A DNA stretch of 64,000 bases from Escherichia virus TH41. The notes under the pieces are model-generated. The model was not told the DNA's origin. It did not search any database and saw only the letters and a program-made list of their open reading frames with translations. The stretch lies in the sequence record MT446412.1. One strand, given 5' to 3'. Below, one piece after another: positions 21,457-26,019 of this stretch (positions are counted from its first letter, which is position 1; the number at the start of each line of letters is the position of its first letter). The position numbers and the translations under genes are program-made.

Positions 21457-21790
21457 TATCGATTTATCTGATTTAGATAATTTCGAGAAAGATGCGGAGG
21501 GAGCTAAGGCTCCTTCTGTACCTTACTACGAAAAAAGTTTGGAGATTATCCGGCAATCCATGGGAACCGTACGACAGGAAATTCTGTTATCACTCCCTGA
21601 TGGGTCCAGTCACATTGTGTACGTAACCGGAATTAAAATTGAACCATCTGGAAAAGTTTCAGTTGATTTCGGCACCCCTTCTGAAGACCGCAAAGCGGAG
21701 CTTGCAGTGCATGTAGAAAAGTGTGTTACAATGCAAATACAAGATGAAATTGATAAGATTAAAATGAAAAAGAGGTGGTGGAAGTGGTAG
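21449..21790 (+). CDS. Hypothetical protein (113 aa), syntenic with T4 gene 40
   Basis: Between uvsX and gene 41; basic/hydrophobic C-terminus KKRWWKW; no sequence-level recognition. Confidence 0.4.
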   Translation: MNDIDLSDLDNFEKDAEGAKAPSVPYYEKSLEIIRQSMGTVRQEILLSLPDGSSHIVYVTGIKIEPSGKVSVDFGTPSEDRKAELAVHVEKCVTMQIQDEIDKIKMKKRWWKW

Positions 21791-23214
21791 AAACTATTTT
21801 ATCCCAGCTACTCTTTAACAAGGAATATTTTGTTAAAGTCTGGCCATATCTGAATAACACATATTTTGAAAAGGGTCCAGCAAAGACCCTTTTTAATACG
21901 ATTAACGAACACGTAAAAGAATATCAAGCGGTACCAACTAAGACTGCACTTGATATCGCGCTCGACAGTTCTGACCTTTCTGAAGTCGAATATGAAGGCA
22001 CAAAGAAACTCTTAGGAGTCCTGGCCGATACTCCAGAAGACCAGGAATGGTTGGTTAAAGAAACCGAGAAGTATGTACAGAAGTCTGCGATGTTCAATGC
22101 CACATCCAGGATTATCGAAATCCAGAGCAATGCCGAACTTCCGAAAGATAAACGTGATAAACGAATCCCGGATATTGGTGCTATCCCTGACATCATGCGC
22201 GATGCATTGTCTATCTGTTTTGACTCTGCTCTGGGCCATGACTGGTTAAACGATTACGAAGCTCGATTCCAGACTTATCTGAACAAATCGAAGAAGGTTC
22301 CGTTCCGTATTAACATCCTGAATAAAATCACGAAGGGCGGGGTTGAGTACGGTACAGAGAACGTTTTACTGGCCGGGACGAACGTCGGCAAATCCCTTGG
22401 ACTTTGTTCGCTGGCGGCTGACTATCTTCAGACTGGTCATAATGTGCTTTATATAAGCATGGAAATGGCTGAAGAAGTATGTGCCAAACGTATTGATGCC
22501 AACTTGCTGGATGTGTCTCTGGATGATATTGATGAAGGTCATGTGTCATGGGCGGAATACAAAAGTAAGATGGAAAAATGGCGTGCAGCCGGGACCCTTG
22601 GGACTCTGAAGATAAAACAATATCCAACTGGCGGTGCTCATGCGGATACCTTCCGTGCATTGCTGAATGAATACAAACTGAAGCAAGGGTTTGTGCCGGA
22701 TGTGATTATTGTTGACTACCTGGCAATCTGTGCAAGCTCAAGACTGAAAACGTTTACCGAAAACAGTTACGGCCTGATTAAGATGGTTGCAGAAGAACTT
22801 CGTGGTCTGGCGGTCGAGAAAAATGTGGTCCTGTGGACTGCAGCGCAGACAACCAGGGGTGCGAACGTTGCAGCTGAGATTGATATGGCTGACATCGCTG
22901 AATCTTTTGGTATTGCTCACACGGCCGACTTTATGTTGGGTGTTGTTGAGACCGAAGAATTCGCTCAAATGGGACTACAGTTAATCAAACAGCTTAAGTC
23001 TCGTTACGGCGATAAGAACTACTATAATAAATTCAAGATGGGTGTTAAGAAAGGTAATCAGCGCTGGTACGAGGTTGATGATGATTCAGCTCCTAAACAA
23101 GGCCCTACGGTTAAAGAAGCCACTGGTGAGATGAATCGCCAGGCTGAAATGAATAGACAAACCAGGGTCAACAGGAGCGACCTGGACGACCTTGCTGCTC
23201 AAATGAAATTCTAA
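21784..23214 (+). CDS. 41: Replicative DNA helicase gp41 (DnaB-like)
   Basis: GTG start giving MVETILSQLLF (T4: MVEIILSHLIF); Walker A GTNVGKSLG; near-identical blocks to T4 gp41. Confidence 0.93.
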   Translation: MVETILSQLLFNKEYFVKVWPYLNNTYFEKGPAKTLFNTINEHVKEYQAVPTKTALDIALDSSDLSEVEYEGTKKLLGVLADTPEDQEWLVKETEKYVQKSAMFNATSRIIEIQSNAELPKDKRDKRIPDIGAIPDIMRDALSICFDSALGHDWLNDYEARFQTYLNKSKKVPFRINILNKITKGGVEYGTENVLLAGTNVGKSLGLCSLAADYLQTGHNVLYISMEMAEEVCAKRIDANLLDVSLDDIDEGHVSWAEYKSKMEKWRAAGTLGTLKIKQYPTGGAHADTFRALLNEYKLKQGFVPDVIIVDYLAICASSRLKTFTENSYGLIKMVAEELRGLAVEKNVVLWTAAQTTRGANVAAEIDMADIAESFGIAHTADFMLGVVETEEFAQMGLQLIKQLKSRYGDKNYYNKFKMGVKKGNQRWYEVDDDSAPKQGPTVKEATGEMNRQAEMNRQTRVNRSDLDDLAAQMKF

Positions 23215-23302: not shown

Positions 23303-23551
23303 ATGTTATTAGTTAATGTGCAGTACCAGTTCAAATCTGAAGAAGCTCTCCAAAAGTATGCTGATATTTGTGAGCATAATAAAAGAACAGCTGCCATTGT
23401 TGGTCTGAAGCCTTTTAAAATTTTGGATTGCTCCTTGAACAGAGCAAGACGCTGGTGTAGTGTTGCCTGTCATGCTTCAGTTGAAGGGAATGATTATTTT
23501 TTCATTACTTTCAATGCACAAGATTTTCATTTAATTAATGAATTAAAATAG
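23303..23551 (+). CDS. Hypothetical protein (82 aa)
   Basis: ATG after conserved leader with GAGGA. Confidence 0.55.
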   Translation: MLLVNVQYQFKSEEALQKYADICEHNKRTAAIVGLKPFKILDCSLNRARRWCSVACHASVEGNDYFFITFNAQDFHLINELK

Positions 23552-23580
23552 TGTACAAGCCCCTTGTCTTAGGACATAAT
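23551..23580 (+). promoter_or_regulatory. Early promoter GTGTAC-N18-CATAAT (PeSL-like)
   Basis: Followed by conserved GATTCCATACTGAGTTACAC block; ATG 23630. Confidence 0.6.
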
Positions 23581-23629
23581 GATTCCATACTGAGTTACAC
23601 AATAAACCAACTGTTAAAAGGAAAACCAT

Positions 23630-23932
23630 ATGTTTAATCAAACCGATATGAACCGTTACTATTTTGGTCAGTTCGCTCGCCGTGATGAAAACTGTGCTGC
23701 TCTTATCGCATCAGGCATTCAAACTGGTAAATTAATAAAGCTCAAAAGCGATGTTCAACCTTCATCTGTTCGCAGCTCTCTTCGTGAGTATCTGCTTGCA
23801 GGCGGGGCAGTATATGTTATCGCTGAACCTTTTGTTAACGTGTGCGACGATTACACAATTAGTGTGACTGTTATGCACCCAACTACTGGGAAAATTCGTT
23901 GTCTGACTATGCACAACTATGAGTTGGCGTAA
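23630..23932 (+). CDS. Hypothetical protein (100 aa)
   Basis: ORF track. Confidence 0.55.
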   Translation: MFNQTDMNRYYFGQFARRDENCAALIASGIQTGKLIKLKSDVQPSSVRSSLREYLLAGGAVYVIAEPFVNVCDDYTISVTVMHPTTGKIRCLTMHNYELA

Positions 23933-23937
23933 GTGAA

Positions 23938-23961
23938 TAAAGGGGCTTACAGCCCCTTTTT
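23938..23961 (+). terminator. Rho-independent terminator (GGGGC-TTACA-GCCCC + T5) overlapping the next -35
   Basis: Stem plus TTTTT; loop CTTACA doubles as -35 of promoter 23946-23974. Confidence 0.65.
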
Positions 23962-23974
23962 CTTATGTTATAAT
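23946..23974 (+). promoter_or_regulatory. Early promoter CTTACA-N17-TATAAT
   Basis: TATAAT 23969-23974; leader CTATCAACTACTGGAGAATAAA then ATG 24001. Confidence 0.55.
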
Positions 23975-24000
23975 GACTCTATCAACTACTGGAGAATAAA

Positions 24001-24318
24001 ATGAAAACCATTGATTGCAAGGCAGAATACAAAGTTTATTATCATGGGTCAAGTTCTAATGCTGGAATCCAAAATATGCTTTGTCCTCCTGATGCAACTG
24101 GTGTTCTGTCAGAAGTTGGGCGTAAGAAAAATTTAGGGCGTGTGTTTTTTACTGAAGATATTGGTTTGGCGCGTATCTATGCAGGAAGAGCAGCTCGCTC
24201 ATATGGAGGAGAACCCCGTCTTTATCGTGTGATTGCACCTGTTGACGTGGTTTGTTTAAATGATACTAAAGGCGCAACAGTTTATCACGCTGACTGGGCC
24301 TTCTGTGAGGAAATCTAA
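24001..24318 (+). CDS. Hypothetical protein (105 aa); possible minimal ADP-ribosyltransferase-like fold
   Basis: Motif order YHGS ... FFTED ... LYRVIAP recalls small H-Y-E class ARTs; unverified. Confidence 0.55.
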   Translation: MKTIDCKAEYKVYYHGSSSNAGIQNMLCPPDATGVLSEVGRKKNLGRVFFTEDIGLARIYAGRAARSYGGEPRLYRVIAPVDVVCLNDTKGATVYHADWAFCEEI

Positions 24319-24522
24319 ATGTATAAATTAGAGAACGTAGTATTTATTGGTTGGTTTGAAAATGGTAATATGTTTACCAAAGAAACCGCGCTGGATGTCA
24401 GTGACAAAAATATGATTGAATGGGTTACAGTGCAGTATGCGGAAGTGAATAATGCGCTGGTTAAAGCCTTTGTTAATGACAATAAAGTTTTTGAATATGA
24501 TGCCCGCATTGAGGAAATCTAA
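24319..24522 (+). CDS. Hypothetical protein (67 aa), paralog of next ORF
   Basis: Shares segment WVTVQYAEVNNALVKAFVND with 24523..24864 (WYVQKTADNYNALVEAFVDG). Confidence 0.5.
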   Translation: MYKLENVVFIGWFENGNMFTKETALDVSDKNMIEWVTVQYAEVNNALVKAFVNDNKVFEYDARIEEI

Positions 24523-24864
24523 ATGACTTTTAATCCAGAAGACCGCGTAAAAGTAACAATCAAAGTGAGTGCCGTTGGCGTTCCATCTTTTGAGCGCTCA
24601 AGTATGTTCCATCCCGCAGGTATTCACTGGTATGTTCAGAAGACTGCTGATAACTATAATGCGCTTGTTGAAGCTTTTGTTGATGGCGAGCTAATCCATA
24701 AAGTAGACATGCGTAAGGGCACTGCATTGCGTAATCTTATCTTGACCGTTGAAGCTCAACTGGTAAATGAAGAAATCTGCCTTACTGATATTGAAGCAGC
24801 TCTTCATATTGCACGTGCTGAATATTACAAATTGACTGGTTTTTCAGTTGAAGGTGAAAAATAA
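24523..24864 (+). CDS. Hypothetical protein (113 aa), paralog of previous ORF
   Basis: ORF track; shared N-terminal block with 24319..24522. Confidence 0.5.
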   Translation: MTFNPEDRVKVTIKVSAVGVPSFERSSMFHPAGIHWYVQKTADNYNALVEAFVDGELIHKVDMRKGTALRNLILTVEAQLVNEEICLTDIEAALHIARAEYYKLTGFSVEGEK

Positions 24865-24894
24865 GTGTACATCAAAGGGGTAATGCAGTATATT
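24865..24894 (+). promoter_or_regulatory. Early promoter GTGTAC-N18-TATATT
   Basis: Leader ATCCCTATCAACTACTGAGGAGATTGAA then ATG 24923. Confidence 0.55.
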
Positions 24895-24922
24895 ATCCCT
24901 ATCAACTACTGAGGAGATTGAA

Positions 24923-25216
24923 ATGAAAAAGTTATTAATCGCAGCAATTCTTACCGTAGCATCATGTGGTACAGCCCCAGTTACTGCTGGGCTTGATAAA
25001 GACCTTTGTGAGTGGTCCATGACTGCGGACCAGACTGATGTTGAACACCAGATTTATGCTGACATCATGAACATTACTAAACGTGACCACCCAGATATGG
25101 TTAAAGAAGTATCTGACCAACTGGCTTCTGGTGACGTTATGCAGTATAACTATGTTCTGTATTGCGATGCTTCATTTGACAACAGCAAGATTGTTCAATG
25201 GGTTACAGGTGAATAA
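24923..25216 (+). CDS. Putative lipoprotein (97 aa)
   Basis: Signal peptide MKKLLIAAILTVASC with lipobox VASC. Confidence 0.55.
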   Translation: MKKLLIAAILTVASCGTAPVTAGLDKDLCEWSMTADQTDVEHQIYADIMNITKRDHPDMVKEVSDQLASGDVMQYNYVLYCDASFDNSKIVQWVTGE

Positions 25217-25217
25217 A

Positions 25218-25658
25218 ATGATTAACAGAAATTTAGTTATCAAAAAACTTCGTTGTAAAAATCAAAATGCACAAGCATACAGGATGTTTTGGAGCGACGA
25301 ACCCATTCAATACCTGGGTTATTTTCTTGTTGATAGTGATAATAGAATTACGTTTGCTCATAAACTTCTTAACAAAGAATTAAACCATTGGCAAGAACTT
25401 ATTGCGGTCAAGTCTAAATTATTTTCGCGCAATACAATGCACCAATTGGTTTATTTTTTCGCTGACGGTATTCCTGACAAGGTTGAGTTTGATGGGTTTG
25501 AATTTAAAGACATCACCCCTGATAATGAATTGAATGACAGTATTGTTAATATGGGTATCCCGGGTAAGTACATCAAAAACAGTCTTTTGAAACTTCTGGA
25601 AACCCCTGTATATTCAGTTGACGACCAGATTTTTAATGCCTTCATGAAGCGAGATTAG
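25218..25658 (+). CDS. Hypothetical protein (146 aa)
   Basis: ATG preceded by GGTGA; C-terminus DDQIFNAFMKRD shared with next ORF. Confidence 0.5.
   Translation: MINRNLVIKKLRCKNQNAQAYRMFWSDEPIQYLGYFLVDSDNRITFAHKLLNKELNHWQELIAVKSKLFSRNTMHQLVYFFADGIPDKVEFDGFEFKDITPDNELNDSIVNMGIPGKYIKNSLLKLLETPVYSVDDQIFNAFMKRD
25618..25653 (+). repeat. 36-bp direct repeat, copy 1 (TTGACGACCAGATTTTTAATGCCTTCATGAAGCGAG)
   Basis: 35/36 identical to 25979-26014; 3' end of gene 25218..25658. Confidence 0.85.
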
Positions 25659-25659
25659 T

Positions 25660-26019
25660 ATGAGTTATTATAATTTTCTGAATTTTGAACTGGCGAGCAA
25701 TAATGATGGTAATGCTCATTATGAATTTCGTGAGCCACGGTTTAATCAAGCGATTGGTTATATTATCGTCAAAGATGATGTTATCATAAAGGCTCGCTCA
25801 TTTATGGTAATGAATGGACCTTATGAAGATACTCGCGGCTATCCATTTGATAAAAAGAATGTGCGCGATTGTGCAGCATGGATAACCGGAAACCCCGAAA
25901 TTGGGGTCATGATATCTACTGAAGCGAATGACATTCTGGAAGGGGTTTGGGCCAAAGCTCAAGAATCGTCTATTGCTATTGACGACCAGATTTTTAATGC
26001 CTTCATGAAACGAGGTTAA
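25660..26019 (+). CDS. Hypothetical protein (119 aa) flanked by 36-bp direct repeats
   Basis: ORF track; C-terminus DDQIFNAFMKRG. Confidence 0.5.
   Translation: MSYYNFLNFELASNNDGNAHYEFREPRFNQAIGYIIVKDDVIIKARSFMVMNGPYEDTRGYPFDKKNVRDCAAWITGNPEIGVMISTEANDILEGVWAKAQESSIAIDDQIFNAFMKRG
25979..26014 (+). repeat. 36-bp direct repeat, copy 2
   Basis: 35/36 identical to 25618-25653. Confidence 0.85.

Follow-up and report, generated by a model that had tools for sequence, protein, structure and literature searches.

The textbook cases of viral ADP-ribosylation come from the T4-type phages, whose ADP-ribosyltransferases (ARTs) Alt, ModA and ModB all reprogramme host proteins using nicotinamide adenine dinucleotide (NAD+), ModA and ModB being expressed early and Alt being injected from the phage head. 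In the rifampin ADP-ribosyltransferase Arr, D84 is catalytic and the DPN motif is 100% conserved (PMC6092378), and the C-terminal helix (alpha-2) bounds the rifampin cleft on one side (PMC8120803). Computational work has also predicted an ART of the H-Y-[EDQ] clade adjoining dmd in phages of Escherichia, Shigella and Salmonella, and has proposed the 'p0068-family ART + Dmd' as a toxin-antitoxin pair (Iyer, Burroughs, Anantharaman and Aravind, 2022; PMC9503650, section 3.7.1). Here we describe ORF105, an open reading frame (ORF) of 105 codons that begins with ATG and occupies 24001..24318 (+) of a window of 64,000 nucleotides, this being the whole stretch of DNA analysed, from the T4-like Gaprivervirus genome of Escherichia virus TH41 (MT446412.1). 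The ORF listing bears out the position and translation given in the original prediction, which had read the protein, from the letters of the DNA, as a possible minimal ART. The description of p0068 fits the TH41 locus, and that family may be the one to which ORF105 belongs. Our analysis makes it probable that ORF105 is a stripped-down relative of Arr, a single-domain ART-superfamily enzyme that is expressed early.

An AlphaFold2 model of ORF105, built from 39 homologues, reached a predicted local distance difference test (pLDDT) score of 88.4 and a predicted template modelling score (pTM) of 0.79. The modelled chain runs through a strand, a long loop, a second strand, a helix and then four further strands, and displays the split beta-sheet of the ART fold. 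The original prediction had named a non-ART fold as the outcome that would speak against it; Foldseek returned ART folds almost exclusively for this model, the leading matches being the Arr structures 2HW2 and 9IAF, each with a probability of 1.0. Among viral models in BFVD, the matches include a siphovirus 'Ms Rifampin ADP-ribosyl transferase' and a phage 'RNA 2'-phosphotransferase'. With Tpt1/KptA the agreement is confined to the NAD+ lobe, 75 residues being aligned out of a chain of 179.

The relation to Arr also emerges from sequence once the wider family is brought in. A profile search of 1.84 billion representative proteins gave 243 relatives of ORF105, many of which are domains in larger proteins, and such domains pass the gathering score of the Pfam family Arr-ms (PF12120). 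Of 40 wider-family members 27 match Arr-ms, with a best E-value of 1.3e-10; several relatives score 27-38 bits on PF12120 against a cut-off of 25, ORF105 itself falling below this threshold. When the alignment of these 40 sequences was searched against the PDB, Arr chains alone were matched (E 0.003), and hhalign of the ORF105 family against an alignment of 49 Arr proteins gave a probability of 92.7% and an E-value of 5.7e-8. The Foldseek and profile evidence together show, at the level of a modelled structure and of sequence comparison, that ORF105 has an ART fold, is homologous to Arr-ms and has Arr as its nearest family.

The original prediction was built on three motifs in a fixed order, VYYHGSSS (residues 12-19), RVFFTED (47-53) and RLYRVIAP (73-80). 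All three are present, and their resemblance to Arr goes beyond chance, as they fall on invariant or nearly invariant columns in the alignments of 39 and 40 homologues and, in a profile-to-sequence alignment with Arr, the family segments yyHGt, vFfT and vvyevep pair with YLHGT, IYIT and RIFIVEP, respectively. On strand 1, H15-G16-S17 (codons 24043..24051 (+)) constitutes the H-x-[ST] NAD+ motif and aligns to Arr H19-G20-T21; all 100 distant relatives have H15 and G16, with T or S at position 17. The long loop between strands 1 and 2 carries E38-V39-G40-R41 (24112..24123 (+)), aligned to Arr E40-A41-G42-R43, and strand 2 carries F49-F50-T51 (24145..24153 (+)), aligned to Arr Y49-I50-T51. In the helix, 11 residues after F49, Y60 (24178..24180 (+)) aligns to Arr W59. 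Seven residues are invariant in the 40-sequence alignment, namely H15, G16, E38, F49, T51, A57 and Y60; in the 100 distant relatives Y60 is again invariant, and E38, R41, F49, T51 and A57 are found at 96-99%. The alignments show H15-G16-S17, F49-x-T51 and Y60 to be the conserved residues of the predicted NAD+ pocket. RLYRVIAP, the third motif of the original prediction, is no catalytic motif but the structural strand following the helix, with L74-Y75-R76-V77-I78-A79 aligned to Arr-ms I72-F73-I74-V75-E76-P77.

Position 49 is Phe in 98% of the wider family and Tyr in the remaining 2%, its counterpart in Arr being Y49. The tyrosines that stack on nicotinamide stand 11 residues apart in diphtheria toxin (Y54/Y65) and in PARP1 (Y896/Y907), and by analogy we infer that F49 and Y60 are the equivalent pair; aromatic stacking capacity is retained, and the hydroxyl of the first tyrosine is gone. 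The assignment to an H-Y-E, Arr-like class stands as regards the ART fold and, through profiles, the link to Arr, but not as regards the 'Y' of the triad, which is F49. Judged by position, D82 (24244..24246 (+)), in the turn after the RLYRVIAP strand, is the strongest candidate for a third ([EDQ]) catalytic residue. Among 110 T4-like copies this position is D in 90, N in 12, G in 6 and E in 2, and an acid occurs somewhere in positions 81-85 in 98 of the 110 T4-like copies and in 81 of 99 distant ones. Arr D84 is placed by hhalign, in a low-confidence part of the alignment, opposite the hydrophobic C85/L86 of ORF105. The sole invariant acidic residue of the family is E38, whereas its Arr counterpart E40 accepts G, A, D and Q; this pattern makes E38 a candidate catalytic or substrate-contact residue and suggests that the essential acid may have been relocated to the strand-1 to strand-2 loop.

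Homologues of ORF105 at 53-98% identity fall into 115 protein clusters and occur in 609 phage records. Pairwise ratios of nonsynonymous to synonymous substitution rates (dN/dS) between ORF105 and homologues of 69-89% amino-acid identity are 0.04-0.23, values that show a real protein-coding gene under strong purifying selection. The carriers are mostly T4-like (Straboviridae) phages of Escherichia, Klebsiella, Acinetobacter, Aeromonas, Vibrio and other hosts, and the family is also found on at least one jumbo-phage-like contig. Among 185,579 species genomes the family is all but missing, with 6 loci found by a single peptide pattern, a scan of limited sensitivity that undercounts. These distributions show a family carried almost only by phages. 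The sole clearly cellular matches in the species-genome scan are stand-alone domain copies of 143-148 residues (L079, 4902-5348; L080, 4923-5354) on chromosomal-size contigs of two Patescibacteria (candidate phyla radiation, CPR) assemblies, one of them Candidatus Kaiserbacteria.

Existing names for the family vary. PHROGs places ORF105 in phrog_2110, 'unknown function', and several GenBank records name homologues '(rifampin) ADP-ribosyl transferase' or 'putative ADP-ribosyl transferase'. In the record of Escherichia phage UPEC01 (L001, 4502-4819; GenBank MW233709, QQG30872.1) the identical gene is called 'clamp loaded subunit DNA polymerase', and several of its neighbours are likewise implausibly named, for example 'major capsid domain-containing protein' on an ORF of 55 residues; the UPEC01 names for this gene and these neighbours look like annotation errors.

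Domains related to ORF105 also form part of larger proteins, which reach 3,924 residues. Among the partners of these domains are ART-PolyVal (four times) and a directly C-terminal NUDIX domain (three times), as well as GNAT, Toprim, ddrB-ParB, DUF7178, CHAP and PcfJ, and one relative is fused to a lambda-type portal, with a 2H/Acb1-like phosphoesterase after the ART domain. In P0148, P0181 and P0194 the NUDIX domain comes immediately after the Arr-like ART domain. By domain annotation, the combination of an ART with an ADP-ribose-processing domain is a recurrent pairing. Such partners are hallmarks of the 'polyvalent proteins' that phages and conjugative elements inject (PMC5512222; Iyer et al., 2017), MuF-type or portal head domains being among these hallmarks, and the relatives of ORF105 are found as modules of proteins of this kind, ORF105 itself being stand-alone. 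These partners mark the domain as an early-acting effector module in NAD+/ADP-ribose chemistry.

Several points weigh against the reading of ORF105 as an Arr-like enzyme. Taken alone, ORF105 has no Pfam match, even at E<=10, and neither the protein nor its close-family profile matched a PDB sequence by phmmer or profile search. The link to Arr is transitive and draws on two thirds of the domain, the N-terminal part; family alignments to Arr in Pfam and in the PDB end at about model position 67 of 99 and Arr residue 82. Catalysis is not assured, because F49 entails the loss of the Tyr hydroxyl and the family has no strictly conserved acid after the helix. The promoter and terminator described below are consensus matches only, and literature searches found no experimental study of NAD+ binding, activity, toxicity or target for ORF105; a HIDEN-SEQ preprint covers, among the genes considered here, dmd, Alt and ModA only. 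With these points in the balance, the original ART interpretation is supported by the model and the alignments, and from it we infer an enzymatic activity and the 'host-takeover or anti-defence' role that had been suggested.

On our preferred reading ORF105 and dmd would be transcribed together, minutes into infection, from the early promoter of ORF105, and the protein would bind NAD+ via H15-G16-S17, F49/T51 and Y60. It would then expel nicotinamide and transfer one ADP-ribose to a target in the host or its defences, with E38/R41 of the loop and/or D82 supplying catalytic or substrate contacts. A protein target is the default for the phage ARTs Alt, ModA, ModB and AcrIF11, and we tentatively consider that ORF105 may likewise modify a protein of the host or its defences, an assignment in which our confidence is low. 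It is possible, if doubtful, that the target is a phosphate-ended nucleic acid or is RNA-linked and is modified by Tpt1-like chemistry; this is a serious alternative because Tpt1 is counted as the best structural match, the family is without a strict catalytic acid, the neighbouring genes are RNA-centred (a goF-like gene, dmd and a dmd-like paralogue) and relatives are fused to NUDIX and 2H domains.

In its full form this alternative makes ORF105 a Tpt1-like nucleic-acid ART that would place ADP-ribose from NAD+ onto RNA or DNA, at a terminal or 2' phosphate, or onto an RNA-bound target, with a role in phage control of RNA decay or of RNA-targeting defences. As a whole we regard it as unlikely. 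Tpt1/KptA (PDB 9LD3, 7KW9) has an N-terminal winged-helix RNA-binding lobe and an R-H-R-R catalytic tetrad, both of which are absent from ORF105; no sequence similarity between ORF105 and Tpt1/KptA was detected, and the nearest sequence family is Arr, not Tpt1. The net charge of ORF105 is merely about +1. Polyvalent proteins, moreover, combine unrelated activities, so that domain fusions are weak evidence, and the gene neighbourhood lies in an accessory cluster that is variable. A more specific version, to which we give the same limited credence, is that the core of about 95 residues is an ART minus the substrate helix and canonical Asp of Arr, with the acid moved to E38, and that as soon as infection begins, in its first minutes, this core ADP-ribosylates either a phosphate-ended nucleic acid (RNA or DNA) or part of an RNA-targeting defence. 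Were this nucleic-acid- or defence-directed ART with its E38 loop to prove true, it would be a fourth ART family in T4-like phages, with a mechanism distinct from those of Alt, ModA and ModB.

The absence of an assured catalytic acid could also be read to mean that ORF105 is a catalytically dead ART-fold protein, either binding NAD+, ADP-ribose or an ADP-ribose-derived immune signal as a sponge or decoy, or acting as a stoichiometric binder of a host protein. It is well established that phages counter defences with sponges for nucleotide signals, and the change from Tyr to Phe at position 49, a C-terminal half without a strictly conserved acid and the very small size of the protein would suit such a role. 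A non-catalytic binder is possible but, in our judgement, improbable, as it is a poor fit with the active-site-like pattern of conservation: H-G-[ST], F49, T51, Y60, E38 and R41 vary little or not at all, in stand-alone and fused copies alike, over a sequence divergence of more than 50%. Phe is able to stack on nicotinamide, an acid is present within positions 81-85 in 82-89% of copies, and the recurrent NUDIX partner suggests turnover of ADP-ribose. We therefore retain an active, Arr-like ART as the preferred reading.

The genes around ORF105 provide the setting for its proposed early expression. Gene 41 (21775-23214 (+)), preceded by uvsX and 40, is followed by a goF-like ORF of 82 residues (23303-23551 (+); PHROG 2980, 'goF mRNA metabolism modulator', E 4.5e-20), which sits between gene 41 and ORF105, and by orf100, of unknown function (23630-23932 (+)), directly upstream of ORF105. 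ORF105 itself (PHROG 2110), the minimal single-domain ART-fold protein of the Arr-like clade, is succeeded by dmd (24319..24522 (+); Pfam Dmd, 1.1e-20), whose ATG directly follows the ORF105 stop codon in the same reading frame. Over the 1.5 kb around ORF105 (23500-25000) the window is 99.5% identical to UPEC01. In T4, dmd comes directly after gene 41 and no ART is present there; because of this, the goF-like ORF, orf100 and ORF105 are, by comparison of gene order, a three-gene insertion relative to T4. ORF105 would thus have come to lie beside dmd owing to a three-gene insertion into the 41-to-61 accessory cluster of some Tevenvirinae.

A promoter upstream of ORF105 had been predicted, and a site resembling a sigma-70 or T4 early-type promoter was indeed found at 23946..23974 (+). 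It reads CTTACA-17-TATAAT with a TG before the -10 box (extended -10), and with 10 of 12 consensus matches this putative site is the top one of a 2-kb scan. A Shine-Dalgarno sequence, GGAG (23991..23994 (+)), ends 6 nt before the ORF105 ATG. A terminator-like hairpin at 23939..23959 (+), AAAGGGGC-TTA-CAGCCCCTTT followed by a T run, has a 9-bp stem with 5 GC pairs and, by its match to consensus, putatively terminates the upstream ORF 23630-23932. The hairpin and the promoter-like site share a common 36 nt, 23939-23974 (+), the -35 box lying within the loop and descending stem of the hairpin. On this arrangement dmd is probably co-transcribed with ORF105.

Directly after dmd lies a dmd-like ORF of 113 residues (24523-24864 (+)), which occupies the place of T4 gene 61.4. 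Its N-terminal half is Dmd-like (E 1.3e-14 in an iterated search from the Dmd of the window; 3e-4 to the PHROG 'Dmd'), and it is apparently a tandem paralogue of dmd, extended at the C-terminus. Then comes spackle (24923-25216 (+)), beyond which gene 61 is expected by synteny with UPEC01. The adjacent ORFs 25083-25658 and 25660-26019 (both (+)) have a common C-terminal peptide, DDQIFNAFMKR[D/G], and the second of them aligns to the end of the Pfam model for anti-DarT factor A (AdfA; final 19 positions, E 5.6e-5, under the gathering score); the two may be split or duplicated 61.2/AdfA-like genes. The accessory cluster of ORF105 also holds the counter-defence genes dmd and spackle and an ORF whose match to the C-terminus of AdfA is weak and below threshold.

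Dmd is an antitoxin-like inhibitor of RnlA and LsoA, and its position makes it a candidate for a partner of ORF105: the two genes abut in one frame behind one promoter-like site, and the same ART-dmd arrangement recurs at 11 related IMG/VR loci as well as in many records of Escherichia and Shigella phages. ORF105 and Dmd might on these grounds, and in line with the published toxin-antitoxin proposal, be a phage-borne type II pair in which the ART is a toxin, possibly acting on RNA, and Dmd the antitoxin. We judge this to be quite improbable. The test was made on 66 IMG/VR loci carrying the ART, with dmd sought within 4 kb. It was adjacent in 11, in all of which the ART is at least 79% identical to ORF105, and was not found within 4 kb in the other 55. 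Even some close relatives have no dmd beside them (L007, L009 and L017-L021), none of the RB16-like, Klebsiella, Acinetobacter, Aeromonas, Vibrio and jumbo-phage loci examined has one, and T4 shows the converse, a dmd without the ART. The gene downstream of the ART is variable, being dmd, spackle, phrog_13952 or phrog_7619, with ORFs of 46 and 55 residues among them, and addiction would bring a lytic phage no obvious gain.

Dmd as a general partner of the ART family is rejected, the linkage not being conserved. Because dmd is present in 11 of the 66 loci and the downstream neighbour varies, the ART-dmd adjacency is a lineage-specific synteny in an accessory cluster and no conserved two-gene module. 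On these comparisons ORF105 is not an obligate toxin restrained by Dmd, and dmd is context for ORF105 rather than a demonstrated partner. The RB16-like, Klebsiella and Aeromonas phages of the T4-like group invariably encode, ahead of the ART, a conserved protein of 250-300 residues (phrog_7439/7204), as in RB16 (L002, 1567-2472), phiAS4 (L004, 1683-2441) and 10 more IMG/VR loci. This protein gave no Pfam or meaningful PDB sequence match and has no homologue in the TH41 window; in those three clades it has a stronger claim than Dmd to be a functional partner.

The GenBank annotation of Klebsiella phage KLB25 implies a true Arr orthologue, one able to inactivate rifamycins. For ORF105 this is for practical purposes excluded and a resistance function is rejected: although Arr is its nearest relative by sequence and Foldseek and one GenBank record names a homologue 'rifampin ADP-ribosyl transferase', ORF105 lacks both D84 and the DPN[VL] motif, each 100% conserved in the Arr proteins compared here, and ends at residue 105 in beta strands without the C-terminal helix of the rifampin cleft, so that substrate-binding and catalytic elements are missing, and antibiotic resistance would be of little benefit to a virulent phage, whose host is dead within minutes.

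There remains the comparison with Arr (PF12120; PDB 2HW2, 9IAF), with which ORF105 has the ART fold and detectable homology in common. Both are unusually small single-domain ARTs, and they share the HG[ST] motif, an E-x-G-R loop, an aromatic-x-T strand, an A-x-x-[YW]-A helix and a hydrophobic V-x-P strand. ORF105 is about 35 residues shorter and, in contrast to Arr, is phage-borne and presumably expressed early. Of the Arr triad H19-Y49-D84 it keeps the His, replaces Tyr by Phe and has no strict counterpart of D84. ORF105 is best described as an uncharacterised phage ART of the Arr-like clade with a reduced architecture. Its core measures about 95 residues, as against 143-151 for the Arr chains in the PDB and 137 for that of AcrIF11, and so small an ART would be a convenient system for studying the minimal machinery of NAD+ transfer.

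The identification of an ART here is not new, since there are the computational prediction of 2022 (PMC9503650), for what may be the same family, and a few GenBank annotations, and it will not surprise the specialist. What the present analysis adds is that ORF105 is neither a rifampin enzyme nor obligately partnered by Dmd, and that candidate catalytic residues can be named; it is a clean and widespread target for experiment, and its own target, once found, could reveal a new step in host takeover or anti-defence.

AcrIF11 (PDB 6KYF), an anti-CRISPR ART of phages and mobile elements, belongs to another sequence family and has an H-H-D active site; its target is N250 of Cas8f, and we know of no link between ORF105 and CRISPR. 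ART-PolyVal (PF18760, Tox-ART-HYD2) is likewise an ART module of giant injected proteins and often shares a polypeptide with relatives of ORF105, but it is a separate family: ORF105 and its relatives have no PF18760 match, and the two lie side by side as distinct domains. Alt, ModA and ModB, ARTs of T4-type phages like ORF105, are larger, unrelated in sequence and of the R-S-E clade, whereas ORF105 is of the H type (H-Y-[EDQ]/Arr-like), has His instead of Arg on strand 1, gave no Pfam match to the Alt, ModA or ModB families and is absent from T4. To the three enzymes of T4 that made viral ADP-ribosylation a textbook subject, ORF105 would add a further, unrelated ART family in the T4-type phages.
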